From the NCBI GenBank assembly GCA_963819985.1, contig CAWFYH010000004.1:397422-461421 (forward strand): 64,000 bases of DNA, written 5' to 3'. The notes under the pieces are model-generated. The model saw only the letters and a program-made list of their open reading frames with translations. It ran no database searches and was not told the origin of the DNA. A program made the position numbers and the translations under genes. This stretch comes from an uncultured Actinomycetota bacterium. GTDB taxonomy: Bacteria > Actinomycetota > Actinomycetes > DATJPE01. Position 1 is the first letter of the stretch. Each line of letters opens with the position of its first letter. Below are positions 1,017-39,843 of the stretch, in pieces.

Positions 1017-1939
1017 GGGGTCCCCGTCAGGATCTGGCGCCAGGCGTCCCTCGATGGCGCGTCCGTGAGTCGGTAGTCGGTGCCCGTGATCGGCGAGTCG
1101 AAGTAGATGGCGAACGGTGATTTCAGATCGATGAGCTGCACAGCCACTTGCTCCAACCACCTCGCTCGTCCCGTGCCGTCGTCGCCTGGGACGACCTGTG
1201 ACCCCATCTCAGCCATGCCCAAGGGGTGGCCTACCTGTTCTGCCTTCTCGACCATGGGCGCTAGCCACGATGCTGCGTCGGGATAGGTGCCTTGGCGCAC
1301 CTCCCGGTTGTAGCAGTCGAAGCCCATGACGTCGAAGAACTCCGAACCTGGGTCGTAGTCCTCGAAGGTCCGACCCACCTCGGGCTTGGTCGTACGGCAC
1401 TGCAGCACCAGCGCCGCCTTCAGCTTGGGGCGATCAACCTCCTTGGACAGCTCGCGGATGTGGCGAAACGCCGCTCGGAACTCCTCAGCCGTGAAGTAGC
1501 CGTCTTCGATGTTGTCCTCCGGCTCGTGGAAATAGACCCACCAGACCCGTCGGTCCTTGGGAATCGACGAGAACCATGCGCTGAGAGCGGCGTCGTGGTC
1601 GCCAGCGATCACTTCGGCTGGCGGCAGCTTGAACGAGACGACCACTGGCCGGTCGGCAACATCAGCGGGACTGCCCTTCCACGGCGGTGGGTCCCCTGGA
1701 TAGAAGATCCGCGCGACCTCGAGCGTGCCGTACGCCGAGTCCTGGCGGGACAGAGCCTCCTCAAATCCTGCTGCGCCTCGATAGACCGTCGTTCCGAACA
1801 GCGTGACCCGCTCATCCGGCCCGGGCACCGTGATCGACGGACCCTCAGTGGGGGTGTAACTCGCACTCGAGGAGCAGCCCGCCGCCATGCAGGCAACCAG
1901 CAGCGCCGCAACTGCCCCTGCGCACCCACGGGGACTCAC
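1013..1939 (-). CDS. GH26-like glycoside hydrolase, lipoprotein
   Basis: Lipobox MAAGC, YFHEPEDNI (acid/base), FDVMGFDCYN, GMAEMG (nucleophile). GTG at 1939 overlaps the flippase stop (GTGA). Confidence 0.75.
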   Translation of the reverse strand: MSPRGCAGAVAALLVACMAAGCSSSASYTPTEGPSITVPGPDERVTLFGTTVYRGAAGFEEALSRQDSAYGTLEVARIFYPGDPPPWKGSPADVADRPVVVSFKLPPAEVIAGDHDAALSAWFSSIPKDRRVWWVYFHEPEDNIEDGYFTAEEFRAAFRHIRELSKEVDRPKLKAALVLQCRTTKPEVGRTFEDYDPGSEFFDVMGFDCYNREVRQGTYPDAASWLAPMVEKAEQVGHPLGMAEMGSQVVPGDDGTGRARWLEQVAVQLIDLKSPFAIYFDSPITGTDYRLTDAPSRDAWRQILTGTP

Positions 1940-3525
1940 GCCGGCACCTCGCGCGTGCCGCGGGACAGCAGGACATGCAGGCTGAACAGCACCCGCAAGC
2001 GCCAGACCAGGGCGGCGTAGACCACGAGACCCAGCCCGAAGGCCGCGAATTGATAGCTCGTCGGGACGTCGGCGAGCGCCAACCCGCCGGGAATCGCGCC
2101 CAGGCACCCCAGGGCCACCAGCGCCGCCGCCCAGGTGCTGCGCCCGAAGGGGTGCAGCCGGAGCTTGACTCCAATCTGGGTCAGGGGCACCAGGTTGTTG
2201 TAGAGGATCGCCAGCGCCCACCCCACCGCAGCACCATTGATACCCCAGCGTGGGATGAGGATGAGGTCGAGCACCACGTTGAGCCCCAGCGCGACGAAGG
2301 CGTTCGCGAAGGTCCAGACAGTCTTACCGGCCATGGCTAGGACGACGTCGACGAGCCCACACCCGGTTGCCACCAGCATGGTCAGGCTGAGCACGACGAG
2401 CACCGTGGTCCCCGCGGCGTACTTCGGGCCGAAGATCAGCGGCAACTCACGAGCAAAGACAGCCAGGCACAGATAGATGGGCCACGTTGCCAGGATCAGC
2501 CACGTGGTCGAGACCCGATATACCGTGCGGACACCTGCGTCATCGCGTAACGCGATCAACCTGCTCAACCGAGGCTGCGCCACAGCGGCGATCGAACCGG
2601 CGGCCAGCTGACCGAAGACGAGGAAGCGAGTGACCGCCGCGTAGACGGCCGCCTCCGCAGGGCCGACCATGGCCGCCACCAGAATGATGTCCAGGCGGTT
2701 GAGGCCGATCTGGGCCAGGCTCTGCAGCCATCGCGCCCAGGTATAGCCCCAGAACTCCCGATGCATCGTGCCGGGCCGAGGTGCTACCACTCCCCTGCGT
2801 CGCTCCACATGCCTCAGCAGCCGCCACAACCACCAGCCGGCAAGGACCGCGGCGGGCAGGTAGGGGAAAGCCCAGGCGAGCGCCAGCGCCGACGAGCTCG
2901 TCGCGCCAACGGCGATCGCCAACCCGATGAGGACGACCTGCAGAAGCGGCCGACCGATCCGATCGACGACCACCAAAGGCCGAAGCTTGTGAAGCCCTCT
3001 CGTGCCGAACAGGCACACATCCATCAGTGCGGCGAAGGGCAGGAACACCGCCATCACTCGGATCGGTCCGATGACCACGTCTGGGTGCGCCGGCACGACG
3101 AGACGTGCGATCGGTCCAGCCAGCAGCGCGAGCACTGCAGCGGTCACGACCGAGAACACCAGGACCGGAGTCAGCGCCGACCGAAGGGCCGATCGGATCC
3201 GCTCGGGCTCGCCGAGGGCAGCCAGCCGAGCGACGAAGTAGACCGCGCCAGTCGACGCCCCCAGCCGGACGAAGGTGAAGGCGAGCACGAACAACGAGAT
3301 CGAGGTGAAGATCACACCGACCGTCACCGTGTTGACGTTTCGGGTCAGCAGCACGGTCAAGACAAAGCCGGCAAGCCCAGCGGTGACCGAGCCGGCGAGC
3401 ACGAACACCCCACCTCGTGCCAGGCTGCGCAGGTCTACGCCTTCCTCATCGGCAACGGCAACCGGCTCGTTGTCGGGGTCGTTGGCTGCTCCAGTCGGAT
3501 CCGCGGCCCGTGACCCGGAGCTCAT
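1936..3525 (-). CDS. wzx: Wzx/MurJ-like polysaccharide flippase
   Basis: About 12-14 hydrophobic segments; RLDIILVAAMVGPAEAAVYAAVTRF and LNVVLDLILIPRWGINGAAVG are typical of the family. ATGA overlap at 3522-3525. Confidence 0.85.
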   Translation of the reverse strand: MSSGSRAADPTGAANDPDNEPVAVADEEGVDLRSLARGGVFVLAGSVTAGLAGFVLTVLLTRNVNTVTVGVIFTSISLFVLAFTFVRLGASTGAVYFVARLAALGEPERIRSALRSALTPVLVFSVVTAAVLALLAGPIARLVVPAHPDVVIGPIRVMAVFLPFAALMDVCLFGTRGLHKLRPLVVVDRIGRPLLQVVLIGLAIAVGATSSSALALAWAFPYLPAAVLAGWWLWRLLRHVERRRGVVAPRPGTMHREFWGYTWARWLQSLAQIGLNRLDIILVAAMVGPAEAAVYAAVTRFLVFGQLAAGSIAAVAQPRLSRLIALRDDAGVRTVYRVSTTWLILATWPIYLCLAVFARELPLIFGPKYAAGTTVLVVLSLTMLVATGCGLVDVVLAMAGKTVWTFANAFVALGLNVVLDLILIPRWGINGAAVGWALAILYNNLVPLTQIGVKLRLHPFGRSTWAAALVALGCLGAIPGGLALADVPTSYQFAAFGLGLVVYAALVWRLRVLFSLHVLLSRGTREVPA

Positions 3526-4373
3526 CCCATCCATCGAGGAGTCCACCCGAGCCAGGCGGCCAATCGCTCGTCATAGGGGCGGAACTCTGTCTCCAACCGC
3601 TCCCGGAGCTCGCCGTCCATCGGAGAACGCGGCCGCGCATTGTGCTGGTCGTACCTTGCGTGGTCGGGCTGCGACAGCTCGAGGAAGTCGAACACCTCAT
3701 TGAGCGCCGGCGCCGGGTCCTCGAACAGTCGATGGCTGTCGACCACGAGGAAGCGGGATCGGTCGATGTGGGAGACCAGCTCCTCGAACTGCTCGATGTA
3801 GCGGCTTCGCGCCAGATAGGACTGGTGCTGCAAGGAGAAACTGTTGTACGTCGGATCCGCGATCATCCGCTCGCGTTCCCCACGGGTGCGTTCGACCTCG
3901 AGCTCTAGGGCCACCTCGAAAGGTTCGGTCTCATAACCCCGCGCCAGCTCGTGGGCGTGGGCCGAGAAGGCCCGCTCAACCGGGTCGCGAATCAGTGTGA
4001 TGACCTTCACCTCGGGCAGGTCCTTCGCGATGCGTTGCGCGGCCAGCGGGTGGAACAGGTAGTACGGACTCGACTCGAAGGTCATCACTGGAGCCCCGGT
4101 GCGGCGCCGTACCCGATCGGCAGTCCACTGCAGAGGGAAATGACTCCGGTACCAGGGAAGGCCCTTGTCGTAGTTGCGGTCGAAATAGTGCACGCCCTTG
4201 TGCAGCACCGCGGGCAGCACCTGAGGGTGTTCGGCCAACGACCGGTAGAGGCTCGAGGTGCCGCCGCGCTGCGCGCCGGCAACGAGGAAGGCCGGCAGCA
4301 GGCGAGCGTTGTTGGTCACCCGGCCGAACTGGAGCGCGGCTCCCCGCGCCAGGCGCCGGGTCGGCGCGAGCAT
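3522..4373 (-). CDS. Sulfotransferase (Sulfotransfer_1 / heparan-sulfate ST-like), ST2
   Basis: FLVAGAQRGGTSSLY..L..HP, VHYFDRNYDKGLPWYR, FESSPYYL, LIRDPVERAFS. GGGAGA RBS; start could be 4373, 4376 or 4379. Confidence 0.9.
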   Translation of the reverse strand: MLAPTRRLARGAALQFGRVTNNARLLPAFLVAGAQRGGTSSLYRSLAEHPQVLPAVLHKGVHYFDRNYDKGLPWYRSHFPLQWTADRVRRRTGAPVMTFESSPYYLFHPLAAQRIAKDLPEVKVITLIRDPVERAFSAHAHELARGYETEPFEVALELEVERTRGERERMIADPTYNSFSLQHQSYLARSRYIEQFEELVSHIDRSRFLVVDSHRLFEDPAPALNEVFDFLELSQPDHARYDQHNARPRSPMDGELRERLETEFRPYDERLAAWLGWTPRWMG

Positions 4374-4536
4374 CACCAACGTCTCCCATCGACACCTGCG
4401 CGAACGGCTTCTGAGCCTACGTCACCAGGCGGCTGGAGCATCCGGCCGAACGGCCAGAACGCACTCGTCCATCGGTCGATCCTCATCGGCGACCAGCGTC
4501 GCTCCGCTCGCCCCTGGCTATGCTCGCCGCGCAGGG

Positions 4537-5073
4537 ATGAGGCCGTTCGACGCCGGATCGGCCCCGGGATCGACGCAGAGCGAGGTGACACAGATCGTGG
4601 CCGCAGGCTCGGTGGACTCGCCCCCCCGCGTCCTTCTGGTCGGGTCCAGCGGCGGCCACTTGGCCCAGCTGATCGCTCTTCGCGGATGGTGGTCAGGAGG
4701 GGACCGCGCGTGGGTGACTTTCGACACGCCCGACGCCCGTTCGTCGCTGGTCGGCGAACCCGTGACTTGGGCGTTTCATCCAACGACCCGCAACCTGCCC
4801 AACCTCGTTCGCAACGCCTGGCAAGCGCGTCGCGTGATGAGGGATTTCCGACCAGACGTGATCGTCAGCACTGGGGCTGCGGTCGCGCTGCCGTACTTCA
4901 TCCTCGGGCGACTCGGCGGCCGGACCACGGTCTACCTCGAGGTGTACGACCGCATCGAGACCGCCACCCTGACGGGCCGGCTGTGCAGGCCGTTCACCAC
5001 TTTGATGCTCGTTCAGTGGCCGGAGCAGCAACACCTCTACCGCGACGCTCACGTGGTGGGACCTGTGCTGTGA
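4537..5073 (+). CDS. PssD/Cps14F/Alg14-like glycosyltransferase acceptor subunit
   Basis: LLVGSSGGHLAQL, RPDVIVSTGAAVALP, YLEVYDRI, LVQWPEQ. Start is ATG 4537 or GTG 4585. Confidence 0.88.
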   Translation: MRPFDAGSAPGSTQSEVTQIVAAGSVDSPPRVLLVGSSGGHLAQLIALRGWWSGGDRAWVTFDTPDARSSLVGEPVTWAFHPTTRNLPNLVRNAWQARRVMRDFRPDVIVSTGAAVALPYFILGRLGGRTTVYLEVYDRIETATLTGRLCRPFTTLMLVQWPEQQHLYRDAHVVGPVL

Positions 5074-6518
5074 CCCAGGCTGTCCCCCGACGACGCGTCC
5101 TCGCGCTCCTCGGCACCGACTACCACCCCTTCGACCGAGCAGTCGGGTGGCTGGACCAGTGGGCCGCCGACCACCCAGACGTCGACGTCACGGTGCAGTA
5201 CGGCAGGTCACGACCACCCACGGTCGCGACGGGTCGAGACTTTCTGGAGCACGCCGAGCTGACGTCGTTGATAGCTGAGAGTGACGTCGTGGTCTCCCAT
5301 GGGGGGCCGGCCACCATCTCCGAGGCGCGGGCTGCCGGGCACCTGCCCGTGGTCGTTCCCCGTGATCCGTCCCAGGGTGAGCACGTGGACGATCATCAGC
5401 TGCGCTTCACCGCGTGGCTCGCAGGCAAAGGTTTCATCGACCGGCATACCGATGCGTCGACGTTCGGGCCTGCGCTGGAGTCGGCCCTCGACCGGGATCG
5501 AACGGAGTCGGCCGCCGCCGACGAAGCGGTCGAGGGCAGCGTTGCCCGGTTGGAGCGCATGGTCACCCAGGCTCGCAGCCATCGGCGAGTACGCCCAACC
5601 GACGGCCCTACCGTGGTCTTCATCGCTGGCTTCGGACGCAGCGGCTCAACGCTGCTCGAGCGACTGCTGGGTGAGAGCCCGGGGATCACCTGCCTCGGTG
5701 AGGTCGTCCATCTATGGGAACGCGGGCTGACCAACGACGAACGCTGCGCCTGCGGAGAGCCGTTCAGCGGGTGCCCGACGTGGATGGCCATCGGGGATCG
5801 TGCCTTCGGAGGTTGGAGTCGGGTTGACGTGAAGCTCGTCCTTGAGCTTCGCCGGCTCGTGGACCGCCAGCGGCGCATCCCGGTCACCGCCTCCCCCGTG
5901 GTGAGTCGCACGACTCGCCAGGCGCTGGTCGAGTACGCGGGCTACTACGCCGCCATCTATCACGCCGCCGCCGCGCTGGCCGGTTCGAGCGTGATCGTCG
6001 ACTCCAGCAAGCACGTCTCCCTCGCCTTTGCGCTCAGCCACGACGTCGATCTTGATCTGCGCATCGTGCACCTGATCCGTGACGCACGTGCCGTCGCCTA
6101 CAGCTGGTCACGCGATGTCGAACGGCCCGAGACCACCAGCCAGCGTTCGCTGATGCCGCAGTACTCCGCCGCGGGAAGTGGACGCCGATGGCTGACGAGC
6201 AATCTGTTGGCGGACAGCCTGCGCCTGCGCGGACTGCCAGTAACACGGGTGCGTTACGAGGATCTCGTCTGTGACCCCGAACAGACGCTCACGGCGCTGG
6301 CCTGCGACCTCGCCCTGCCGGTGTCCCCCAAGCTCGACGTCGTGGACGGGCAGGTCGTCTTGGGCGCCTCCCACTCGGTAGCGGGCAACCCCATGCGTTT
6401 TGTGACCGGTCCGATCACGTTGCGTCTCGACGACGCCTGGGCGCAGGACATGCCCGCGGGCGACAGGCGCGTGGTGACCGCTCTCACGGCCCCTGTGCAG
6501 CGTTGGTACTCCCGGTAG
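5070..6518 (+). CDS. Fusion: PssE/Cps14G/Alg13-like GT (N-terminal) + sulfotransferase (C-terminal), ST3
   Basis: N-terminal: LGTDYHPFDR, VQYG, VVSHGGPATI, VVPRDPSQGEHVDDHQ. C-terminal: VFIAGFGRSGSTLL, DSSK, HLIRDARAVAYS, VRYEDLV. One continuous frame; GTGA overlap with the pssD-like stop. Confidence 0.85.
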   Translation: MTQAVPRRRVLALLGTDYHPFDRAVGWLDQWAADHPDVDVTVQYGRSRPPTVATGRDFLEHAELTSLIAESDVVVSHGGPATISEARAAGHLPVVVPRDPSQGEHVDDHQLRFTAWLAGKGFIDRHTDASTFGPALESALDRDRTESAAADEAVEGSVARLERMVTQARSHRRVRPTDGPTVVFIAGFGRSGSTLLERLLGESPGITCLGEVVHLWERGLTNDERCACGEPFSGCPTWMAIGDRAFGGWSRVDVKLVLELRRLVDRQRRIPVTASPVVSRTTRQALVEYAGYYAAIYHAAAALAGSSVIVDSSKHVSLAFALSHDVDLDLRIVHLIRDARAVAYSWSRDVERPETTSQRSLMPQYSAAGSGRRWLTSNLLADSLRLRGLPVTRVRYEDLVCDPEQTLTALACDLALPVSPKLDVVDGQVVLGASHSVAGNPMRFVTGPITLRLDDAWAQDMPAGDRRVVTALTAPVQRWYSR

Positions 6519-6619
6519 GGCCACGAGCGCGTCGGCACTTTGTCTCATCTATTGGACACCACGAGTCACATCAGCCACCCTCGAACCAGTTGCCCCAGTT
6601 TCTGGTGTGCCGCTTTGCA

Positions 6620-6635
6620 TTTGAGCGATTTCACA
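6620..6635. promoter_or_regulatory. Candidate CRP/GlxR-type binding site
   Basis: TTTGA-GCGATT-TCACA matches 9/10 of TGTGA-N6-TCACA; intergenic, about 90 bp upstream of the riboswitch. Confidence 0.35.
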
Positions 6636-6722
6636 CCTACTGTCTGGCCCGCCCAGCCGCGTCGAGCTGAGCCCGTTCGCGCCACCGCCGAGTCCTGTCT
6701 CGCGCGCACGGAGTCGATCACT

Positions 6723-6850
6723 ATCCGCTGGCAGGAGCGGGGGACCCACACTCGGGCACCCGCCAGGTGTCCTCGGGGTTAAGCCGTCTCGCACGGCCGG
6801 GCTAGCTCCAGCCCGAACCCGACAGCTGACCTCGTAGGCGTCGGAGAGAG
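6723..6850 (+). ncRNA. c-di-AMP (ydaO/yuaA) riboswitch
   Basis: Ordered conserved blocks GAGCGGGGGACCCA ... TCGGGGTTAAG ... GGGCTAGCTC ... GCCCGAACCCGACAGCTGACCTCGTAGGCGT ... GAGAG, on the coding strand 51 nt before ATG 6902. Confidence 0.92.
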
Positions 6851-6901
6851 AGTCGTCTTGTCTACGTCGTACGCCCTCAACCTGCCTGGCCGGGAGTCTC
6901 G

Positions 6902-7885
6902 ATGACCCTGACCAGACGCGATCTGCTGAAGTATTCTGCGGTGACCACCGCCGGTGTGGCCGGCTTGTCCGTGGCTACCGTGACCGCACCGGCCGAGGCC
7001 AAGAAGAAAAGGAAGAAGGCCGCCGGGGGGGCTAAGTTCCCCGGTCACAAGCCGGGCCACATCTACCTCGGCGTGTCGGCCGCGGGGGACGTCAACAAGG
7101 CGATCCGCTCGACGGGGCCGGTCGGACTGGCCCGCACCTACTACCGCTGGGGTGACGCGAGCCGCGAGGACCGCAACATCAGGGCCGACCATGCAGCCAA
7201 CCGGCTCCCGTGGATCTCGTTCAAGCCTGCCTCGACCGCCAAGGGCGGCTGGGCGGCCATCGCCTCCGGTCGATACGACGCCGACATCCGCGCTCGAGCG
7301 CGGCGCTATGCGGGCCACTCCAAGCCGATCATCGTCACGTTCAATCACGAACCCCACAACGACAAGACCGGCTCTCCGAGTGACTTCGCCAAGGCCTGGT
7401 GCCGCATCCACGACGTCATGAAGAAAGAGACCGGCCTCAAGAACGTGATCTCGGTCCCGATTCTTGGTGACTGGGAGTTCAATCCCGTCAACCGTAAGGG
7501 CGACCCGGGCGCGTTCTTGCCGGACTCAGTCCTCAGCCGTTGTCACTTCCTCGGAACCGACATGTATCAGAATCGATCGGGTCAGGGCTACGACGTGCGG
7601 CTCGGGCGGATCCTGAACTGGCTCAACGCTCGCGGTCACAGCCAGCTGATGGTCGGGTTGGGCGAGACCGGCTGCACGAATGACTACGGCAGTCCGTCGG
7701 GCGCCACCTGGTGGACGAACGGCTGGAAGTGGGCGGCCGCACACAGCGACCGAGTCGCCGCCATCGCGTATTTCAACAGCCAGCACAACAACAACTCTGG
7801 CAACACCTGGCTGCTCACTGAGTCGGCCAGCAAGCTGGCCGCGTTCAAGCAGAGCCTTGCGTCCTCCACGGCCTGCAAGCTCTAG
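6902..7885 (+). CDS. Tat-exported GH26-like glycoside hydrolase
   Basis: Twin-arginine LTRRDLLK signal ending AEA; TFNHEPHND, FLGTDMYQ, GLGETG, AYFNS. GGGAG RBS. Confidence 0.78.
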   Translation: MTLTRRDLLKYSAVTTAGVAGLSVATVTAPAEAKKKRKKAAGGAKFPGHKPGHIYLGVSAAGDVNKAIRSTGPVGLARTYYRWGDASREDRNIRADHAANRLPWISFKPASTAKGGWAAIASGRYDADIRARARRYAGHSKPIIVTFNHEPHNDKTGSPSDFAKAWCRIHDVMKKETGLKNVISVPILGDWEFNPVNRKGDPGAFLPDSVLSRCHFLGTDMYQNRSGQGYDVRLGRILNWLNARGHSQLMVGLGETGCTNDYGSPSGATWWTNGWKWAAAHSDRVAAIAYFNSQHNNNSGNTWLLTESASKLAAFKQSLASSTACKL

Positions 7886-7965: not shown

Positions 7966-8754
7966 TCAGGACTGATCGCGACGAGCAGCAGTGCCTCGTC
8001 CTACCCAGAGTCCGATCAGCACTCCGATCGTCACACACCCGCCAAGGACGGCGAGTCGCACCTTCGGCAACAGGCGATCGGGACGGTTCACCGTCTTGAT
8101 CACTCGGCCGGGTTGCTGCTCGACGGCCTGCTGCACGGCGATCAGCTGGGCCGTCTGCTCAGCGGCCCGACGGGCGAGGACTCTGCTCGTCTCGCGACTA
8201 GCCGGCGACACGACCGTGTTCTGCGCGCGTCTTTGGGCCTCCTGGGCCTCAATGACCTCTACCCGGGCAGCAGTGGCGGCCTGCGCCCTCGCCACTCGCT
8301 CAGCAAGCGTCGCCCGCGCAATCCTGGCGACCATGTCTCGCGCTTGCGCCGCCGTTTCCGCTCGATAGCGGATGAGGATGATGGAGGCGTTGGGCACGAT
8401 CGCGGCGCTCAGCCGGCGGCGCATGACCTCAGCCGTGGGCGCGGGCTGCCCATCGGCCGCGACCCTTCTCAGCACAGCATCGGACTGGGGAAGATGGGAT
8501 TCTGTCTCCATGTCGGTCAACAGGTTTCCCGACCGGTCGGCGTAGGCGTTGCCGGGCATGGGCGCCAGCAGGACCGATGCCTCCGCAGTGACCTGGGAGT
8601 CCAGGCGTGTCCAGATCGCGAGCCCCAGGGCCGCCCCGGCAACGGCCAGCACGAGCACCCAAGCCGTGCGCCGCAACCACCGGCCACCGCGGTTGGACGA
8701 CTGATCGGATGCTCCCCCAGCCAGCTCCGGACTCTTCGTCAACACCTCGCTCAC
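7966..8754 (-). CDS. Wzz-like polysaccharide co-polymerase / chain-length protein
   Basis: Two terminal TM helices flanking a periplasmic-type coiled region; TAEASVLL, IVPNASIILIRY. GTGA overlap. Confidence 0.6.
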   Translation of the reverse strand: MSEVLTKSPELAGGASDQSSNRGGRWLRRTAWVLVLAVAGAALGLAIWTRLDSQVTAEASVLLAPMPGNAYADRSGNLLTDMETESHLPQSDAVLRRVAADGQPAPTAEVMRRRLSAAIVPNASIILIRYRAETAAQARDMVARIARATLAERVARAQAATAARVEVIEAQEAQRRAQNTVVSPASRETSRVLARRAAEQTAQLIAVQQAVEQQPGRVIKTVNRPDRLLPKVRLAVLGGCVTIGVLIGLWVGRGTAARRDQS

Positions 8755-9548
8755 GGTCGACCTCCGAGACGAAGTGCGCGCCGCTCCCACAGCAGGCCGA
8801 CGAAAAATCCGATCAGCGCCCCGAGGCCGGCACCCGACATCAAGATCACGTCGATCGTCCCGCGACGGACGTCCGGAGTGCTTGCCGAGGCGACGACCGT
8901 GCCGGCCTGCGGCATCCGCACCTGGTACGCCTGAGCCCTCTCCAGTCGGGTCTCCAGGGCGGCCTGCCCGCGGGAAACGGTCACCCCTTCGACGTCGGAG
9001 CTGCCGATGAGGGTGTCCTCGTTGCTGTTCTGGGTCTCGATCGAGGCCTTCTCGACCCCACTCAGATAGGTCCGGACGGGATTGATGATGACCTGCTCAC
9101 GCTGATCCAAGAGGGCCTCTGCGGCCGCCGTCGCGCCATCACGGGCTGAATCGGCGGACGCCGAAGTGGTGTAGGTGATCTCCAGAATCCGCGACAGCGG
9201 CCGGGCTCGTACGGCTATCCGATCGCGCACTCGATCCGAGGCGAGCCCGGTCTCTCCCGCAACCGCGTCCACGACCTGATCGGAGCCAGCCAACCCGGCG
9301 TCGGTGTCGATCGTGACGTCATCGAGTGTTGGGCCGACCGGGTTGAGGTCGACGAGCGGGGCCACGGCCGACAGCTCCAGGGAAACCGTTGAGGAGTACT
9401 CGACCGGCCGGCTCAGGTACCACGCACCGGCGGCGGCGGTTCCGAGGACGGCTCCGACCAAGACGCCCACGACGGCACGCCGTCCGGCGCGCATGATCGG
9501 GTCGCGATCACCGACGATCGTCGGAAAGCTCAGCATCGGCTTACCCAC
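8751..9548 (-). CDS. Wzz-like polysaccharide co-polymerase / chain-length protein
   Basis: TM helix, YSSTVSLEL, SRILEITYT, C-terminal TM GAGLGALIGFFVGL. Start uncertain (9548 or 9536). Confidence 0.6.
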   Translation of the reverse strand: MGKPMLSFPTIVGDRDPIMRAGRRAVVGVLVGAVLGTAAAGAWYLSRPVEYSSTVSLELSAVAPLVDLNPVGPTLDDVTIDTDAGLAGSDQVVDAVAGETGLASDRVRDRIAVRARPLSRILEITYTTSASADSARDGATAAAEALLDQREQVIINPVRTYLSGVEKASIETQNSNEDTLIGSSDVEGVTVSRGQAALETRLERAQAYQVRMPQAGTVVASASTPDVRRGTIDVILMSGAGLGALIGFFVGLLWERRALRLGGRP

Positions 9549-9599: not shown

Positions 9600-10826
9600 T
9601 CACTGCCCACCTCGAGCACCTCCTGCGGCCACTGCAGCGGCTAGACCTTGAAGCCGCCGAACCCGGCTCTGCAGAGCTCTCGGAAGCTGGTCGGCCGCCA
9701 GATGGGCGTAGCGGTACAAGATCTCGATCACGTAGAGCAGGATCGTCGCGTCGACGACTTCCGGCGTTGACCACCATCGCGTGGGCGCGGCCAGCATGCC
9801 CTCCCGAACCCGACCGAGAAACACCTGCGTCGATGCCCCGTTGCTCGCGTCGTTCTTGCTCAGTTCACGCTGCACCACGAAGTGGACGAGATCGAAGCCC
9901 AGCGGCACCCCAGAAGCCGACTGCTCCCAGTCCCAGAGCTCGAGGCGTCCGTCGAGGCGACCCATGTTCCACGGCGCCCAGTCGCCGTGCCACCGTCCGA
10001 AACCGAGCACGGCGGCTCCAAACTGCGTCTCGACGCTCGTGATGAGATCCCGAGTCGGAGCGGCCGGCGATCGGGGGAGTCCCTGAATCCGTCGACGAAG
10101 ACCCGCCCAGTAGCTGCTTTCGGCGACCGACTCATGCCTGGTTTCGGCGGACTCCGCCAGCTCCACCATCTCGACCATCGGGACGGTCCACGACGACGCA
10201 GCCGATGCCGACGTGTGGCGGGCCTGAGCCGACCCCATAGGCGTCAGAAGCAGGACCTGCAAGCCGTTCCACTCGCCTGCGAACACGACTTCCGGGACGT
10301 CGATCAACGAAAGCGCAGCCAAACTCGGATCCATCAGTGCCTGAGTCTCAGCACGAACCAGCGAGCCGGCTCGTTCGTCATGGCCGACCTTGCCGAACGC
10401 GAGGGTCTCCCCGGACGAGCCGAAGACCTGCAGCACTGGTTTGGCGTTGGCTCGTGGCGGACCCAGGATGACGCCGATCGCTTCCGCTCCGGTCACGTGC
10501 TCTCGGACCAGGTCTTCCAGGCTCGGGCTCGCGGCGATGTCCAACCGGGCCACGGGCAGCCATGAGATCAATCCCGTACGGACCGCAGCGGCGATCAGCT
10601 CCTGTGCGAGTGTCTGCCGCCGGCTGCGACTCCGTCGTCGCAGCATGACCGAGGCTCCGCCGATCCCGGTGGGGACGAGCAGGCGCGGCGATCGAGCCGA
10701 CGGGAGGACGAGGAGGGCCGGACCGCCCCCCGGCCGCCTGGTCCAGCGTCGGCCACCGCCGGGCCAAAAATCCTTGACCGAATCGAGGACGGCCGGGCGG
10801 TCGACGCGCACAGCTACCCCTTCCAT
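9600..10826 (-). CDS. APH/choline-kinase-like phosphotransferase
   Basis: AFGKVG, Brenner-type HGDWAPWN, LWDWE. Start is ATG 10826 or GTG 10811. Confidence 0.65.
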   Translation of the reverse strand: MEGVAVRVDRPAVLDSVKDFWPGGGRRWTRRPGGGPALLVLPSARSPRLLVPTGIGGASVMLRRRSRSRRQTLAQELIAAAVRTGLISWLPVARLDIAASPSLEDLVREHVTGAEAIGVILGPPRANAKPVLQVFGSSGETLAFGKVGHDERAGSLVRAETQALMDPSLAALSLIDVPEVVFAGEWNGLQVLLLTPMGSAQARHTSASAASSWTVPMVEMVELAESAETRHESVAESSYWAGLRRRIQGLPRSPAAPTRDLITSVETQFGAAVLGFGRWHGDWAPWNMGRLDGRLELWDWEQSASGVPLGFDLVHFVVQRELSKNDASNGASTQVFLGRVREGMLAAPTRWWSTPEVVDATILLYVIEILYRYAHLAADQLPRALQSRVRRLQGLAAAVAAGGARGGQ

Positions 10827-12358
10827 GCGAACTCTTCCTGCGAGCCCAGGGCACGCCTCGCCCGTTCGGACAGGTCAGCGGCGTCGGAGAAGATCCGCTC
10901 GCGGTTCATCAGCCCCACAACCAGCATCAGGACGAACAGAGGCGTTTCCAACGAGTCGTAGACGAAGAAGAAGAGCACGGAGGTCGCCAAGGTGATGCAG
11001 CCCAGGATGCTGAAGGGGTCTCGGCGACGTACATGGACGAAGAACTGGAGGGCCAGAAAGCCCAGGAACAATGCGGCGCCCACGAAACCGGTGGTAAAGA
11101 TCAACCGCCACATGAAACCCTGGGTGCCCAGGGGCGGTGCTGCGCACTGACGGCAGTTGGGGTTGTCGCCTCCCGCGATCGACGCGAAACTTCCCTGGAC
11201 TTTCCGCGTCGTGCCGAAACCAAGCAGAGGCGATCCTTGCCAGGTGGTCGTCGTTACGACCTCCGCCACGGTCAGCCGGCGATCATTGCTGTGCGGCGTT
11301 GCCACCCGAAGCGTGATCGTCGCCCACAACGGAGACAGCACCACCAGGACGGCCGCGAGCAGCACGGCCGTGGCAAGAACCCAAAGCTCTGTGTAGCGAC
11401 GCAGTCGGCCCAGCGCCATGGCGGCGACCACGGTGATCAAGCCGATTCCGAGCCAAAGCCCGCGGTTGAGGGAGAAGGCAATCGGGATCGCGGCAAGCGC
11501 CAGCCCCAACGGCACCAGCCACTTGTTCAAGCCCCTCGGATCCAAGACGATCGCCACCGCAGCGGCCGCAACGATCACCACCGGCTTCGGTCCCAGGACG
11601 TAGACGGCGGCGAGGGTCAGGGCCACCGGAAATAGGAATCGCGGCCACGGACGACGGTCTGCCCATGCCGAATACACGAAGAACGGGAGGAGAAGGCCGA
11701 TGTTGTTCCCCCACGCATTGGCGTAGGCAAACGGCGCCTTGGGTCGAGGCTGCTCATATCCCAGGAAGTCGCTGGCCGAAGTCAACGAGGGGTGGACCAA
11801 GGAATTCAAGAAGGAGTTTGTCTCGGCACCTGGAAGAACCAGCTCCATCAGCGACCGGAACTCGAAGTGCGGGGCGACGACACCCGCGAGCCCACCGATC
11901 ACGCAATACATGAACAGCACACCGAGCCACCGAGCCAGGTCCCGCCCGGGCATCTGCTTCGGCGTGATGTTGAGCGGGTAGAGCACGGCGACGGTGATCG
12001 CGAGATACCACAGCACGCGGTAGGCGTAGGGGACGAGTCTTTCGGGGCCACCGCCGTCAATGGTGCCCGGCGCATGCGCCCACAAGACGAAGACACCGGC
12101 CAGCATCCAGAGAAAGAAGAGCAGCCACAGCCCGAAACCGACGGGCAACCGCAGCGTGCGGCGCCGCAGCATCTGGACGGCCATGCAGGCCGCGGCGATG
12201 AGCGTGATGAAGCTCGCCAGCCCGAGGGCCCACCAGATGGGGAAGCCCAGCAACATCGCCTTGAGCGGCCAGGCCGGTCCCAACCGGCGCACGATCCAGC
12301 TGTTGCCGCCCTCCGGCTCGGCCACCGGCTCGAGACGCGAACGTTCCAGCAGAGTCAT
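10814..12358 (-). CDS. wzy: Wzy polymerase / O-antigen ligase family membrane protein
   Basis: Multi-TM; RPKAPFAYANAWG, SLNRGLWLG, PLLGFG. ATGA overlap at 12355-12358. Confidence 0.75.
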   Translation of the reverse strand: MTLLERSRLEPVAEPEGGNSWIVRRLGPAWPLKAMLLGFPIWWALGLASFITLIAAACMAVQMLRRRTLRLPVGFGLWLLFFLWMLAGVFVLWAHAPGTIDGGGPERLVPYAYRVLWYLAITVAVLYPLNITPKQMPGRDLARWLGVLFMYCVIGGLAGVVAPHFEFRSLMELVLPGAETNSFLNSLVHPSLTSASDFLGYEQPRPKAPFAYANAWGNNIGLLLPFFVYSAWADRRPWPRFLFPVALTLAAVYVLGPKPVVIVAAAAVAIVLDPRGLNKWLVPLGLALAAIPIAFSLNRGLWLGIGLITVVAAMALGRLRRYTELWVLATAVLLAAVLVVLSPLWATITLRVATPHSNDRRLTVAEVVTTTTWQGSPLLGFGTTRKVQGSFASIAGGDNPNCRQCAAPPLGTQGFMWRLIFTTGFVGAALFLGFLALQFFVHVRRRDPFSILGCITLATSVLFFFVYDSLETPLFVLMLVVGLMNRERIFSDAADLSERARRALGSQEEFAWKG

Positions 12359-13230
12359 GAGGCCTCTGCGTCCGCGTTTGACCTGCCGACGATGTCCCAG
12401 CCCCACCGCGCGGCAAGGCCGAGGCCGTACCACTCGTCAACGAGTGAGACCTCGTCAGCCAGCTCCACCTGTACGGCCAACCGGTCCTCGTCAGTCATCT
12501 GCGGACGATCGCCACCGAGCGGCACGTACAGCGTGCGTTGCACGAGGCCGGATCGCTTGACTCGACCCACCAGATTGGCGCCGTCCAGCCGCTCCCGGAC
12601 GAGGTCGGCACTGCGGCGAGCCAACCGAGACAGGAACATCGAACGAGCACGGGCAGCAGGCAGTCGAGCGGCGAGGAGCTCATCACTGAGGGGCAACGGA
12701 GCGAGTCCGAGCCACCTGGTCAGCTCGTCGATGAAGCACTGTGGATCGGCAACCAGGTCGTCGAACACTGCCACATGGATAGAGTCGGGCCCGAACTCCT
12801 CGCGGAACCGGGCAAGACCGGTGGCATACCGGCCGTGGTCGAGCAGCTCGGGGCGTCGGGTCAGGGCAGTCTGGAAACTGCCTGGCTGCTGGCCCTGTTT
12901 GAGCATGTAGAGGTAGGACGAGAACGCCCGATCCGCCGGGTCGCGAAGGCTGACCATGCTCCTGACGTGCCCCAACGACTCTGCGATCCGACCAGCGGCC
13001 CGAGCATCGAAGAGATAGTCCTGACACACTTCCCCGACCACGGCGTGCTGCTCGTCGGCCCCCGAGAACTGTTCCAAGTACCACGGCAGCCCACGCTCGT
13101 AGTAGCGGTCGAAGAAATAGAGATCCTTGGCCTCCGGCATGAACACCGAGGGATGGGTCAACAAGACCTCGTGCAACCACGATGAACCGGCCTTGTCAGG
13201 TCCGATGTAGATGAAGTTGGGCTTGGACAC
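12355..13230 (-). CDS. Sulfotransferase (Sulfotransfer_1 / heparan-sulfate ST-like), ST4
   Basis: PNFIYIGPDKAGSSWL..L..HP, KDLYFFDRYYERGLPWY, GEVCQDY, LRDPADRAFSSY. Confidence 0.9.
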   Translation of the reverse strand: MSKPNFIYIGPDKAGSSWLHEVLLTHPSVFMPEAKDLYFFDRYYERGLPWYLEQFSGADEQHAVVGEVCQDYLFDARAAGRIAESLGHVRSMVSLRDPADRAFSSYLYMLKQGQQPGSFQTALTRRPELLDHGRYATGLARFREEFGPDSIHVAVFDDLVADPQCFIDELTRWLGLAPLPLSDELLAARLPAARARSMFLSRLARRSADLVRERLDGANLVGRVKRSGLVQRTLYVPLGGDRPQMTDEDRLAVQVELADEVSLVDEWYGLGLAARWGWDIVGRSNADAEAS

Positions 13231-13270: not shown

Positions 13271-14101
13271 CTACCTCAGCTCTAGCCGTTCACTCTCCAA
13301 ACGCTGCCAGATCTCGCTAGTTGACACCTCGACGTGCTCGACCTCGTTTGGATCAAGACGCTCTCGCCAACCGGACGCAACCTCACCGGGGGCGCGGTCG
13401 AAACCGTGCAGCTGACCAATTCTCGGCTGCTCGGGAGCCCCCACTGACGGCTCGTGATCTCCATGGGAACCGGGGACCAGCCCGCAGGCATGCATGACGG
13501 CCCGGACGGCTCGATCACCGCCAAGGGTGAGCTCGGCATGGGAGACCAGGACGGCTGTTGGGACACGGTGCAACCACTCCAGCACGCACTCGTGCAGGAA
13601 GCTCCAGAACTCCACCATCGCCGCGGCGTCGTTGTCGGGTGCGGCCGCATCGAGACCCCGAAGCGTTCTCATCTCCTCGACATCTGCGGTCCACCCCATC
13701 CGGCGATAGCTCGCAAGGACGGCTCCCGGGTGGCGGTAGACGACAACCGGGACAGCGCCGGTGACCTGGGCGATCGTCGGGACCGACAGCAGCGCGAACG
13801 GGTCCTTGATGATGGTGTGTGCCCAAGGCCAGGGGGCTGACGCGCGCGACGCCCCGTACCTGCTGTAAGTCCTCGGTTCGAGCCCCGCATAACACCGTCG
13901 CAGGACCTTGCTCTGGGTGGCAGTAGGACGCTCTAGCCGCGTCCACCCCGACAAGGTGCCGCCCAGAGCGAACTGGCCGGGTCGGGGATTCATCGGCTCA
14001 CGCCCCGGCAGACCGGTCCAGCGAGCTCGCGCCAATTCACGAGCCAGCCAGGTCGTGCCCGACCGGGGCATGCCCGTGACAAGAACCGGGGGAGCCGACA
14101 T
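13271..14101 (-). CDS. Sulfotransferase (Sulfotransfer_3-like), ST5
   Basis: VLVTGMPRSGTTWL, IIKDPFALL, VYRHPGAVLASY. Start is ATG 14101 or GTG 14164. Confidence 0.85.
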   Translation of the reverse strand: MSAPPVLVTGMPRSGTTWLARELARARWTGLPGREPMNPRPGQFALGGTLSGWTRLERPTATQSKVLRRCYAGLEPRTYSRYGASRASAPWPWAHTIIKDPFALLSVPTIAQVTGAVPVVVYRHPGAVLASYRRMGWTADVEEMRTLRGLDAAAPDNDAAAMVEFWSFLHECVLEWLHRVPTAVLVSHAELTLGGDRAVRAVMHACGLVPGSHGDHEPSVGAPEQPRIGQLHGFDRAPGEVASGWRERLDPNEVEHVEVSTSEIWQRLESERLELR

Positions 14102-14165
14102 CAGCTTTCGGGGCACACCGGACGAAGGACTGCGAGGCCCCACCTCGGTCGAGCTCGGCAGCACG

Positions 14166-15104
14166 TCATGAAAGACCACGGCCCACCACCCGCGCCGACC
14201 GAAGAAGGAATCGCGGATCAAAGGCGAAGACGACCTGCACCAGGGCAAGCAAGGCCTGCGGGGCGATCGGCCATCGTGACAATGACCGCCCAGCCCAGGC
14301 CAGGGCCTCGCGCCGGTGTCCAAGGCTGGCCTCGGCGAAGGCGATCTGGCCCATGATCCGGGCGTGCCCGGCCCTCGACCTCGAGATCTCCGGGTGTCGC
14401 TCGAGGACGTACTGGAGAGCGCTGGAGACGACCTCGTTGCGTTCCCGAAACCAGGACTGGCCGTCCTTCTTGATCGTGGCCAGTGGCTCGCGCACCACAC
14501 CGATCGGCCCCAACCGGACCGCGCGCAGCAGCCACTCGTAGTCCTCGGCGTAGCTTTGCGGAAGCTTCTCGTCGTAATCACCCACGGCGTCAAAGACCGA
14601 CCGGCGCATGAGCAGCGTCGACGAATGCAGCTCTTTGCGGCGAGAGCGGAACAGATCGCCCTGGGTGACGACATCCGCCGGCCCCAGCCATTCGACGACT
14701 CGGTCCTCGGCCATCTGCAGTCGGATCCCGGCCCCCACGACCATGAGCGCAGGTTCGCTCAGCAGTCGCTCCATCTGCCGCTCGAGCTTGCCCGGCAGCC
14801 AGGCGTCGTCGTCGTCACAGGACGCAACGAAGTCGGTCGTCACTTCACGGAGTCCGGCGTTTCGGGATGCGGACAGCCCGGTTGCGCCGGTGTTGGCCAT
14901 CACCTGCACCCTTCGGCCAGGGCGCGCCAGAGACTCGAGGCTGAGGTCCGGCGGCTCCTGATCATGGACCACGATGCAGCGCACTGAGCCGGCGTACGTC
15001 TGACCGACCACGCTCTCGACGGCCTTGCGAACCAGCTCGGGACGACCCCGGGTCGGGACCACCACGGTCACTGCTGGAGCGCAGTCGGGCTCAGGGGCGT
15101 CCAC
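14166..15104 (-). CDS. GT2 family glycosyltransferase
   Basis: VTVVVPTRGR, GLSASRNAG, VASCDDDD (DXD), AEDYEW. Confidence 0.9.
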   Translation of the reverse strand: MDAPEPDCAPAVTVVVPTRGRPELVRKAVESVVGQTYAGSVRCIVVHDQEPPDLSLESLARPGRRVQVMANTGATGLSASRNAGLREVTTDFVASCDDDDAWLPGKLERQMERLLSEPALMVVGAGIRLQMAEDRVVEWLGPADVVTQGDLFRSRRKELHSSTLLMRRSVFDAVGDYDEKLPQSYAEDYEWLLRAVRLGPIGVVREPLATIKKDGQSWFRERNEVVSSALQYVLERHPEISRSRAGHARIMGQIAFAEASLGHRREALAWAGRSLSRWPIAPQALLALVQVVFAFDPRFLLRSARVVGRGLS

Positions 15105-16989
15105 GGTCGCCGCTCTTGGCCGTCGACCGTGTCTTGGCCGCACCCCGACCGACCGGCTTGACCGCCTCTGAGGCGTCTAACCCTTGGGAAGGCTGGGCTT
15201 GCGATGCCTGGTCTTGCTGTCCTTCGTCCGAGATCAGCGAGTCCGCAGTCTCCGAGCCAGAGTTCGGGGCCTGCCGGGATTCCATCGTTGACGGCCCGGC
15301 GTGACCACCCACGTCGGAGACGGTCACGATGCCAACCACGTGCTCGGTGACGCCGAGCCAGGTGAGCTGCTCGACCGCATAGACCAGGTCCTGCTGCTGG
15401 CTCAGACCTACCTTCACCACGATCAGCACGGGACCCGCGGTCTGCAGAACACTTTGCGCGAGCGCCCCGTCCAGCGGCACCTGCACCTGGGCCACGGCCG
15501 TCCCGTGGCTGTTGGCCAGCTCCCCCCACAGCTTGCCCAGACGACGACGTTGGGTCGCCGGTGGAATGTCGCTCGAGCCGCTGCCCGGCCCCATGAGGGC
15601 TGCCCCTTGCCGGGACACTGCTGGAACCGCATCTGCGGCGGCGCATTCGCCGCCCAAGACATTGGTCAGTCCGGGTGCGTCAGAGGTGAACCGTCCCGCG
15701 ACGGCCGTTCCACCAGGCTCGGTCAGGACCAGGGCCGCACCGCCGAGCACGTCATTGACAGCATCGCTGATCGCGACGGCTGCTCGGGTCATGAGGCCCG
15801 GGTAGTCGACTCCGACGAGCACCAGCGGACCCCGTCGCTGCGAAGCGGCGGCGACGGAGGTGACCAGTCCCTCGAGCCCAGCATGGTCGCTTCCGCCCAC
15901 AGCACCCGACTCATCCACCTCGACCGAGCCGAGCACGTCCAGCCGAGTTGGCGACAGCGGCTCCGATGGCTCTGGCCGGGCCGGCGGGGCCGGTGGAGGA
16001 ACAGACTCCGTAACCATGCCTACGGTGGCAGCGGCAGCCGGAGCGGCAGCCGGGAGCGACGGCGGATCGGCTCGGAACTCACCGGTTGGAGGTGGTGGGA
16101 TCGAAGGCCGCGGTTCGATCGCCGTGACGGCTTGGGTGGTCGGACGCGACAGGCTCGCCAAGGCGCTCGACCCGCTCGACGCCAGCTCGGCGTCGGCCGA
16201 CCGTCGCTGCATCAAGAGCACGAGGCCGGATCCGACCAGACCCCCGAGAACAACACCGGCCAGCACATCGATCCACAGCACAGGCGACGTGGGGCTTGCG
16301 GGCAACGTGGCCTCGCTGATGATCTGCCCACCCTGCGTGGTCTGGACGTCCAAGGCGACGAGTCGGCTGTTGATGTCGGAGATCTGGGTCTGTGTGATGG
16401 CGATGTTGGCCTGCGCTCGCGCGAGATCTGACTCCCGGCCCGACGCCTTCGCGGCGGCTAGGTCATCGGTGTATCCGTTGAGTTCTTCCGTGAGGCTGGC
16501 AAGTTGCCTGTCCAGGCCCGCCTTGGCGGCGTCCCGAATTTCTGCGGCGGCCTTCGACCGGCGGTCGAGGTAGGCCGTGGCGAGAGCCTGGGCACCGTCA
16601 CGAGCCAGCTCAGGTGTCTTGGCGTCGAAGGAGATCACCAGCACCTCACTGTTCGGGGAGGTGGTCACCGCCGAGTTGTCGATCAGCTGCTGACCGGTGA
16701 CAACGCCCCCGAGCGCAGTGGCAGCGTCGGCCGCGACCTGAGCCGAGTGCGCGACCTCGGCCTCGGTCTGGATCTGTACCTCGGTGGTGCGCCCCCCGTC
16801 GGTCGAGGAGTCCAGCCCACCTGCCGTCGGGAGCACGAGGACCGACGCTTCGGACTCGTACACCGGAGTCTGCAGCGCATAGAACGCGAAGCCGGCGCCC
16901 CCCCCGATCAACGCACACACCACGACCAGAGCTACCTGCGCCGCACCCCATGGGCGACGACCCTCGTCTTGACTCGTCGCAGTCAACAC
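15091..16989 (-). CDS. Wzc-like co-polymerase with a degenerate (pseudo)BY-kinase domain
   Basis: Wzz N-terminus (YESEASVLV, SEVLVISF), second TM, Pro/Ala linker, then a kinase-fold remnant (PGLTNVL, VLIVVKVG, VVGIV) lacking GK[ST], DxD and the Tyr cluster. GAGGA RBS before GTG 16989. Confidence 0.72.
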   Translation of the reverse strand: MLTATSQDEGRRPWGAAQVALVVVCALIGGGAGFAFYALQTPVYESEASVLVLPTAGGLDSSTDGGRTTEVQIQTEAEVAHSAQVAADAATALGGVVTGQQLIDNSAVTTSPNSEVLVISFDAKTPELARDGAQALATAYLDRRSKAAAEIRDAAKAGLDRQLASLTEELNGYTDDLAAAKASGRESDLARAQANIAITQTQISDINSRLVALDVQTTQGGQIISEATLPASPTSPVLWIDVLAGVVLGGLVGSGLVLLMQRRSADAELASSGSSALASLSRPTTQAVTAIEPRPSIPPPPTGEFRADPPSLPAAAPAAAATVGMVTESVPPPAPPARPEPSEPLSPTRLDVLGSVEVDESGAVGGSDHAGLEGLVTSVAAASQRRGPLVLVGVDYPGLMTRAAVAISDAVNDVLGGAALVLTEPGGTAVAGRFTSDAPGLTNVLGGECAAADAVPAVSRQGAALMGPGSGSSDIPPATQRRRLGKLWGELANSHGTAVAQVQVPLDGALAQSVLQTAGPVLIVVKVGLSQQQDLVYAVEQLTWLGVTEHVVGIVTVSDVGGHAGPSTMESRQAPNSGSETADSLISDEGQQDQASQAQPSQGLDASEAVKPVGRGAAKTRSTAKSGDRGRP

Positions 16990-17040
16990 CCGATCCTCAC
17001 TACGAAGTCCCACCGTCGGAATCAACTGCCTTGCGGATCG

Positions 17041-17112
17041 ATCCGATCCGGCGCAGCCCACGTCGCCACCAGTGTCGCGCCGATCACTTGAAGTTACATC
17101 ATCCGATCCGGC
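17041..17112. repeat. 12-bp direct repeat ATCCGATCCGGC, 60-bp period
   Basis: Copies at 17041-17052 and 17101-17112, upstream of the wzc-like gene. Confidence 0.8.
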
Positions 17113-18730: not shown

Positions 18731-19111
18731 GAGGTTGCACTCCGATTTCGTTGGTGACCCGCGCACGGGTGGAAGGGGAACAAGTCCGTCCCGCCTGTTT
18801 TCGGCCGGAGGTCGAGGACCCTTGACCAGCCCGATCCGGCGTCGGGCGTCGACGGTACGTAGTGATCGCGCGAGGACCAAAGCCCCCTCGCAGCACAGAT
18901 CTGGCGTCATCCACAGCGGGGAAGAGGCCGTTGACTACCGTCCGTCACCACATGCCGCGAATCGTCGGCGTCGCGGCGGGCGTGTCCGCACGCTGGGTGA
19001 GGGCATGGTGAAGCCGGTCACAGCCTGGAGCTGTCGCCGTGACCTGGCTCACACCGACGGGCCCGGGGCCGTTTCATGACGCCGCCGGACACCAAGTTGC
19101 TGCGATCGGGT

Positions 19112-20836: not shown

Positions 20837-21112
20837 AACTCCCCTAGCCTGTGCACCTACGAACCAATTCGCCGCTTTCGGTTGCGCCAAGCCCGGGTGA
20901 GCCGGCGGCCTTCTGCGGCGGTGTGCTGAGTCAAGCAGGCTCGAGCACCGGGCAACAGCCCCGGCGCGCGGATCGAGCCGAACGGTTGACCCCGGCCCTG
21001 TCCAACGGACTAACCCAATGGAGTCAAAGCAATTCTCTGCGTGACAAGGACGGTCCCGAGCCGACGAAAACCGCCGAGAGACCGGCCCCTGCGGTCGCCC
21101 TCGATGAGACCG

Positions 21113-39767: not shown

Positions 39768-39843
<76 letters not shown>

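Follow-up and report, generated by a model that had tools for sequence, protein, structure and literature searches.

The riboswitches for cyclic di-adenosine monophosphate (c-di-AMP) known from actinobacteria control wall hydrolases (PMC10117811, PMC11481543). OFF logic has been shown for the rpfA riboswitch of Streptomyces (PMC10117811, PMC11481543), and the nlpC riboswitch of Corynebacterium glutamicum acts translationally, with an unchanged mRNA level and a hypothesised CTCC-GGAG pseudoknot that involves the ribosome-binding site (RBS) (PMC9960051). A further relevant system is the B12 riboswitch of ppe2 in Mycobacterium tuberculosis, which acts through an upstream open reading frame (uORF), uPPE2, by termination-reinitiation at an AUGA overlap, as shown experimentally (PMC11260477). 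Here we describe a predicted c-di-AMP riboswitch on contig CAWFYH010000004.1 (assembly GCA_963819985.1) of a soil member of the Actinomycetota; the 64,000-nucleotide (nt) stretch of the contig that was analysed is referred to as the window, and coordinates are positions in it. The RNA precedes a gene at 6902–7885 (+) for a 327-residue enzyme, starting MTLTRRDLLK, with a twin-arginine translocation (Tat) signal and a fold predicted to be that of glycoside hydrolase (GH) family 26. We put at roughly 60% the probability that it is a functional ydaO-class riboswitch which has its own promoter and switches off a monocistronic gene encoding a Tat-exported glycanase of GH26 fold.

The aptamer was identified by the Rfam model RF00379, which matches positions 6716–6855 (+) over model positions 1–134 of 134 with 68.3 bits, compared with a gathering score of 38 (E 1e-13, cmscan). 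It is the sole riboswitch detected by cmscan in the 64 kb of the window, and an E-value search of 6520–6930 found no other Rfam family. The core comprises helices P1 (6726–6729/6837–6840), P3 (6737–6742/6830–6835), P5 (6776–6778/6818–6820), P6 (6784–6787/6793–6796) and P7 (6799–6802/6811–6814) and an inserted hairpin (6754–6760/6766–6772), all on the + strand. For comparison, 38 genomic and 50 metagenomic loci encoding relatives of the enzyme were fetched (labelled L001 and so on), and a clade-specific covariance model for the aptamer, with which the window RNA scores 159.6 bits, was run over them. Covariation was counted in an alignment of 25 related aptamers by comparing the true pairing with slid partners and with 500 shuffles. 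In the core helices 91.3% of the cells are paired, compared with 39–49% for slid partners, and 12 pairs have changes on both sides, a number that none of the 500 shuffles reaches. An earlier note on this DNA had recognised a ydaO-class aptamer here, and both the Rfam score and the compensatory changes bear this out. Its distance of 51 nt to the gene needs correction: the model ends 46 nt before the ATG, and the first start codon, a TTG at 6858, lies only 3 nt past the model end.

The position of the aptamer in the 5′ leader, directly upstream of the gene and on the same strand, is kept in 24 loci. RF00379 finds it in this position in 11 genomic loci. The clade-specific model yields 25 aptamers in all; surveyed across the related genomes, the gene behind the aptamer is a GH26-like one in 24 cases (the window and 23 other loci) and an Rpf-LysM gene in one, L064. 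The remaining loci gave no aptamer with this model even at E ≤ 1, and since it thus finds no sub-threshold copies, we take the absence in the riboswitch-less loci as real. In a neighbour-joining tree the riboswitch-bearing genes fall into one large subtree that also holds riboswitch-less members, and the deeper branches, which are embedded in polysaccharide gene clusters, never carry the riboswitch. Genomes often contain two or three paralogues of the enzyme, and in each of L005/L019, L013/L016 and L007/L008 only a single sampled copy has the riboswitch; on the contig of L005 and L019 (CAVVQA010000003.1), the controlled copy lies outside the cluster and two uncontrolled copies lie inside. The protein of L064 (1332–2096, −) consists of 201 residues with an Rpf (Transglycosylase-like) and a LysM domain; the same riboswitch variant (2066–2141, −) stands divergently in front, with the start codon again directly behind a purine tract, and the GH26-like gene of this locus (3001–3843, +) has no riboswitch. 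L044, the sister of L004, encodes a 65%-identical homologue and has no aptamer match in 3 kb of upstream DNA, an apparent case of recent loss or replacement of the leader.

With the rpfA and nlpC riboswitches the window RNA shares the aptamer class, the core helices and the pseudoknot between P7 loop and 3′ tail. Like them, it forms the leader of a gene for a secreted envelope-active hydrolase, is expected to switch expression off and has no canonical terminator. It differs from both in its target, a GH26-fold glycanase in a sulfotransferase-rich locus instead of a peptidoglycan hydrolase (Rpf, NlpC/P60), and in the start codon behind the aptamer, which opens a uORF. The pseudoknot, an established part of the ydaO class (PMC5393176), joins CUCC of the P7 loop (6806–6809) to GGAG at 6843–6846 (+), which begins two nt past P1. 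In the alignment, its four core pairs are standard in 19–21 of about 23 sequences, and variants that stay complementary are seen in L005 (CCUUC:GAAGG), L023 (UUCUUC:GGAGAA) and L002 (UCUCC:GGAGA); the crystallised Thermoanaerobacter tengcongensis RNA has CUCCUUCG and CGAAGGAG at the equivalent places (PMC5393176).

As proposed for nlpC, the CUCC of the aptamer is able to pair with the GGAG of the ribosome-binding site. In the comparison of leaders, GGAG opens a tract of ten purines directly after P1 (GGAGAGAGAG, 6843–6852, +) that is Shine-Dalgarno (SD)-like for the first start codon, which lies 15–20 nt past the 3′ strand of P1 in every locus and, in each of the 25 leaders, no more than about 11 nt from the pseudoknot strand. 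Because GGAG opens the purine tract and the start codon is close behind, we equate the pseudoknot strand with the SD site. A scan for E. coli-type promoters and terminators found no terminator-like site between the aptamer and the ATG. The earlier note had likewise seen no U-rich terminator in 6851–6901 and had suggested that control may be translational, and the anatomy of the leader, with a start codon directly behind the pseudoknot strand, indeed points to translational OFF control. Two loci depart from the common pattern: in L007 (5789–5942) and L013 (5825–5972) the last hairpin loop is G-rich (AAGGGC and GGGG, respectively) and non-complementary to GGAG, to which a C-rich stretch (CCCUU and ACCC, respectively) immediately in front of the start codon is complementary instead. 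The partner of the pseudoknot may have shifted in these loci, or the complementarity may be due to chance.

In the window, the TTG at 6858 opens a uORF of 15 codons (LSTSYALNLPGRESR, 6858–6905, +), the TGA stop codon of which overlaps the start of the enzyme gene in ATGA at 6902–6905. The same arrangement is present in L001, L002, L003 and L039, with 15–18 codons, always in frame and always ending in ATGA. The equivalent start codon of 19 other loci is that of the full-length enzyme itself. The peptide encoded by the uORF (STSYALN...) resembles the N-terminus of such direct-type proteins, for example that of L053 (VSSSYALNRRQLLK; SSSYALNRRQLLK), and for this reason we interpret the uORF as a retained, split-off ancestral N-terminus. 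A weak SD-like GGGAG can be read 5 nt before the main ATG (6892–6896, +); in relatives, the corresponding sequence is AGAGG, GGCGG or GGTGG. We considered a hairpin in the uORF leader that would sequester the main SD and ATG and rejected it, the fold being no better than that of shuffles (z 0.13). The RNA is similar to the ppe2 B12 riboswitch (PMC11260477) in the compact platform for translational OFF control that both appear to form and in the uORF with its AUGA overlap. The two differ in ligand and aptamer class, in the main open reading frame (ORF), which lacks an SD in M. tuberculosis and has a weak one in the window, and in the relay itself, which is experimental in M. tuberculosis and proposed by analogy for the window RNA.

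The most prominent feature of the upstream leader is a long-range helix between UCCUGUC at 6693–6699 and GGCAGGA at 6730–6736 (+). Of its 168 cells in the alignment, 99.4% are paired, compared with 32–66% for slid partners, and it has three both-side changes, which none of the 500 shuffles reaches; the compensatory cases are UCCCACC/GGUGGGA in L064 and U-A for C-G in L005. GGCAGGA forms the invariant linker between P1 and P3; where the RF00379 model has an optional P2 hairpin, the window RNA has this helix to an upstream hairpin loop instead. The helix crosses the 5′ strand of P1 and thereby gives the RNA a pseudoknot topology. As the leader of L064 belongs to the Rpf gene, the 5′ helix is a trait of the riboswitch variant and not of the glycanase gene; possibly, it has not yet been described for the c-di-AMP riboswitches of actinobacteria.

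The upstream strand of this helix belongs to a conserved block, CGCCGA(G/A)UCCUGCC, which every one of the 24 full loci has at a fixed distance of 30-odd nt before the aptamer. In the window the block (GCCGAGUCCUGUC, 6687–6699) lies in the loop of a predicted hairpin, P0 (6673–6711, +), with a stem at about 6673–6682/6702–6711, and in about 20 of the 24 loci it comes to lie at the apex of a hairpin when each sequence is folded by minimum free energy. The P0 stem is paired in 59% of the alignment count compared with 75% at slide −2, its support coming from the per-sequence folds only; the fold of the upstream leader alone, taken as a single sequence, is unexceptional relative to shuffles (z −0.16).

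Further upstream, the comparison of loci points to a promoter at 6615–6643 (+), composed of a −35-like TTGCAT (6615–6620), a 17-nt spacer and a −10-like TACTGT (6638–6643). Both hexamers are conserved in the window and L001–L003, and the spacer diverges. In 21 of 24 loci, a TANNNT hexamer precedes the conserved leader block by 43–53 nt, compared with about 2.5% per locus expected by chance. The scan for E. coli-type consensus sequences gave no promoter match, and the promoter was therefore assigned comparatively. A dedicated promoter, with a transcription start near 6650 and thus upstream of the whole RNA element, is likely on these grounds.

Together, these features would fit the following mechanism. 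Transcription would begin near 6650, and the RNA would adopt the RF00379 core and, as the comparative evidence shows, the clade-typical helix from the upstream hairpin loop to the P1–P3 linker. Binding of c-di-AMP would stabilise this fold, including the pseudoknot between CUCC and GGAG (6843–6846). As the ribosome-binding purine tract starts with GGAG, the bound state would hinder binding of the 30S subunit at the start codon at 6858 and repress translation. In the clade of the window, the signal would be relayed from the 15-codon uORF to the AUG of the enzyme by termination-reinitiation at AUGA, and the lower rate of translation may secondarily reduce the mRNA. With an OFF switch of this kind, the enzyme would be made when c-di-AMP is low. 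Any physiological cue, such as osmotic downshift or dispersal, is speculation.

The enzyme consists of a signal region (about residues 1–33, TRRDLLK ... AEA), a basic linker (KKKRKK) and a predicted (β/α)8 domain. The signal region contains a twin-arginine motif, a hydrophobic region and an AxA site (TRRDLLK ... APAEA), and Arg5 and Arg6 show a conservation of 90% or more. Among 5.8 billion proteins searched, 162 homologues were retrieved, nearly all unnamed, one of which (Vallicoccus soli) is labelled as a GH26 domain protein by UniRef. Neither Pfam (PF02156 absent at E ≤ 0.01) nor NCBIfam detects a catalytic domain, and sequence and profile comparison with the PDB gave marginal results only, the best profile match being 4zxo (E 0.52). 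As the sequence models had returned no glycosidase domain, the fold was predicted. The AlphaFold model, built on 36 homologues, has a pLDDT (predicted local distance difference test) of 90.7, and its top Foldseek matches in the PDB are all GH26 enzymes: the lichenase CtLic26A (2cip; E 2.6e-14, template modelling score 0.79), the β-1,3-xylanase 2ddx and then mannanases. Other families of clan GH-A follow further down, with CcsZ (6uje) among the weaker matches.

His149, Glu150 and Glu255 are invariant in 36 sequences. In the predicted model, Glu150 (NHEP) and Glu255 (GETG) are located at or after the strands 143–147 and 250–257, and local alignments match Glu150 with the AYE motif of 2ddx and Glu255 with the TETG motif of 4zxo. 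Glu150 is a candidate acid/base and Glu255 a candidate nucleophile, placed in the model as expected for clan GH-A. With CAZy family GH26 the enzyme shares the predicted (β/α)8 fold, a His-Glu motif after strand 4 and a Glu in strand 7; it differs in lacking a PF02156 match and in its identity of about 16% to the solved members. Because the curated sequence model is unmatched, we refer to it as GH26-like and not as a member of GH26. The calculated isoelectric point (pI) of the mature domain is 9.74, and values of about 9.3 or higher were obtained for 22 of 24 homologues. No second copy of the enzyme is encoded within the window.

The gene had been described in the earlier note as a twin-arginine, GH26-like one closed by a 19-bp hairpin. 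The Tat signal is confirmed by TIGR01409 of NCBIfam (19.4, cut-off 16.7), the Pfam model TAT_signal being narrowly missed (21.4, cut-off 22.7), and the GH26 likeness stands as far as the predicted fold is concerned and fails at the level of Pfam. The hairpin is indeed present, at 7907–7925/7930–7948 between convergent gene ends; it is GC-rich and 100% complementary, has a 4-nt loop and no U tract, and could be terminator-like or a stabiliser of the 3′ end. As predicted by RNAfold, L001 and L039 have long hairpins of other sequence behind the gene, L002 has a related one, and L003 and L004 have only short ones.

The riboswitch and its gene lie within a polysaccharide locus that extends from 204 to 20890, as judged by Pfam matches and synteny, and adjoins the conserved pth-rplY-prs-glmU block. 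It contains five ORFs with sulfotransferase domains (204–1160, 3522–4379, 5061–6518, 12355–13230 and 13271–14674), of which that at 5061–6518 is fused to a GT28-C/Alg13-like domain and is preceded by an Alg14-like gene (4258–5073), as well as a Wzx-type flippase (Polysacc_synt, 1936–3546), a GT2 glycosyltransferase (14166–15143) and a Bac_transf priming transferase (19163–20890). All these assignments, the five sulfotransferase-domain ORFs included, are above the Pfam cut-offs; the earlier note's placement of the gene in a polysaccharide locus is supported. A Wzy/O-antigen-ligase-like membrane protein at 10814–12433 is a weak assignment (Wzy_C 18.8, cut-off 31.7). The locus is syntenic with L001–L004 and shows partial synteny with many other loci. 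That its product is a sulfated polysaccharide is a reasonable inference from this gene content. Related clusters rich in sulfotransferases house the enzyme gene in about 20 of 39 genomic places (the 38 fetched loci and the window), some of them with the riboswitch and some without.

The fold, secretion signal and basic charge of the enzyme, together with its recurrence in such clusters, make the polysaccharide of the cluster the best candidate substrate, an acidic and probably sulfated polymer that the enzyme most likely cleaves. Degradation or release of this polymer by the enzyme is plausible through guilt by association only.

Several observations weigh against the interpretation as a whole. 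The pseudoknot of the window has only 4 bp and shows little covariation, and L007, L013 and, weakly, L003 misfit it. Ribosomes could still be recruited by AGAGAG, the 3′ part of the purine tract, which the pseudoknot does not include, and the main ORF might be initiated independently from its own weak SD-like GGGAG. Binding of c-di-AMP and regulation by the window RNA are themselves predictions, and rpfA of S. coelicolor has been reported to be attenuated in transcription without a canonical terminator (PMC10117811; discussed in PMC9960051). On the side of the enzyme, a Pfam GH26 match is missing and the identity to solved GH26 enzymes is low, and in L005, L006, L009 and L012 the riboswitch–gene unit stands alone among housekeeping genes, away from any polysaccharide cluster. 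None of this revives a chance or decayed aptamer devoid of function, which is extremely improbable and effectively already refuted by the score of 68.3 bits against a gathering score of 38, the compensatory changes among 25 related copies and the position and strand conserved across loci. A real riboswitch could act mainly on transcription, by non-canonical attenuation or Rho-dependent termination in the leader, with an incidental position of the SD. Premature termination without a canonical terminator at rpfA (PMC10117811), the frequent pairing of translational control with Rho in mycobacterial riboswitches (PMC11260477, PMC12810186) and a leader richer in C than in G (17 versus 12 in 6856–6901) are consistent with such a mode. 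We nevertheless consider it rather unlikely, given the lack of a terminator-like site, the unchanged nlpC mRNA in C. glutamicum (PMC9960051) and the start codon at most about 11 nt from the pseudoknot strand in 25 of 25 leaders, a spacing needed for translational and not for transcriptional control. Attenuation or Rho may still add to the translational effect or replace it.

The other two alternatives concern the relay and the substrate. The uORF could be a non-functional remnant of a frameshifted N-terminus, the enzyme being translated from its own GGGAG and the control by the riboswitch being weak or following another route. The ATGA overlap and the frame, kept in five of five clade members despite length changes of 3 and 9 nt, speak against a remnant, and so do the aptamer, 5′ helix and promoter, the full conservation of which in the clade argues for continued use. 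The resemblance of the peptide to the direct-type N-terminus of L053, by contrast, indicates an origin by frame change, each of the five members has a G-rich SD-like element in front of the main ATG, and the leader has no sequestering structure (z 0.13); we regard a remnant as less likely than not. As for the substrate, the enzyme could be an ordinary member of the c-di-AMP regulon of cell-wall hydrolases that has a wall-bound glycopolymer or glycans associated with peptidoglycan as its substrate instead of a released sulfated exopolysaccharide, and whose place in the cluster reflects biosynthetic trimming or is incidental. This would agree with the known actinobacterial targets cited above, with the same riboswitch variant in front of the Rpf-LysM gene of L064 and with the four units among housekeeping genes. 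The predicted fold is that of GH26 β-glycanases and not of the lysozyme or amidase type, however, and the family recurs inside sulfotransferase-rich clusters; the basic pI suits a polyanionic substrate, although teichoic-type wall polymers would suit as well. A wall-bound polymer is a serious alternative as substrate, to which we assign distinctly less than even odds, and cleavage of the cluster polysaccharide remains our preferred reading.

The locus has further features. It is unusually rich in sulfotransferases for actinobacteria. An ORF of 408 residues at 9600–10826 (−) is conserved in related clusters, has no Pfam match and contains WHGDWAPWN, which we take to resemble the HxDxxxxN catalytic loop of kinases of the APH/choline-kinase type. 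A CBM4_9 protein of 571 residues (17195–18910, −), the rest of which is unassigned, recurs beside the GH26-like gene in L004 (7024–7791), L007 (7409–8239) and L013 (7055–7834) and may, as a second enzyme, act on the polymer as well. Three more conserved ORFs of the cluster, at 7966–8790, 8751–9548 and 15091–17061 (all −), are without a match in Pfam; those at 7966–8790 and 8751–9548 keep their synteny in L001–L004 and could encode chain-length-type membrane proteins. Elsewhere in the window, Rfam RF00005 identifies tRNA genes at 25139–25209 (−, 53.3 bits) and 39770–39843 (−, 66.1 bits). An rpfB-like gene (31617–33586, −) with three DUF348 domains, a G5 and a Transglycosylase-like domain lies downstream of metG-tatD and is followed by ksgA; no Rfam family reaches its gathering score near it. 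For this arrangement in M. tuberculosis, an RNA switch upstream of rpfB has been reported (PMC6009663), and a 2024 preprint calls this switch B12-sensing.

Secreted glycanases encoded within exopolysaccharide loci are exemplified by PslG, PelA, BcsZ/CcsZ and ExoK. The enzyme of the window resembles them as a secreted glycanase inside the biosynthetic cluster of a surface polysaccharide and differs in that they belong to other GH families; to our knowledge, none of them is known to be under a c-di-AMP riboswitch. A limited literature search found no earlier report of a c-di-AMP riboswitch in front of a GH26-fold glycanase in a polysaccharide locus. A further reading, to which we give clearly less than even odds, is that a subfamily of soil Actinomycetota ties the potassium/osmotic messenger directly to the trimming or release of a sulfated surface polysaccharide. 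It would do so by a riboswitch variant that has the 5′ helix as a second pseudoknot-type element and, in the clade of the window, by a uORF/AUGA relay. If this is true, matrix turnover joins peptidoglycan remodelling in the c-di-AMP regulon. The pairing of RNA and gene, kept in at least 24 loci, presents a polysaccharide-type glycanase as a new target class for a known signalling RNA. The 5′ helix, if not previously described, would sharpen the structural picture of the class in actinobacteria. The locus also offers a natural system for asking how terminator-less c-di-AMP riboswitches act when a pseudoknot strand is the ribosome-binding site, and how riboswitch signals are relayed through overlapping uORFs. 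If confirmed, these relationships would widen the c-di-AMP regulon from the remodelling of the cell wall to the processing of surface polysaccharides.

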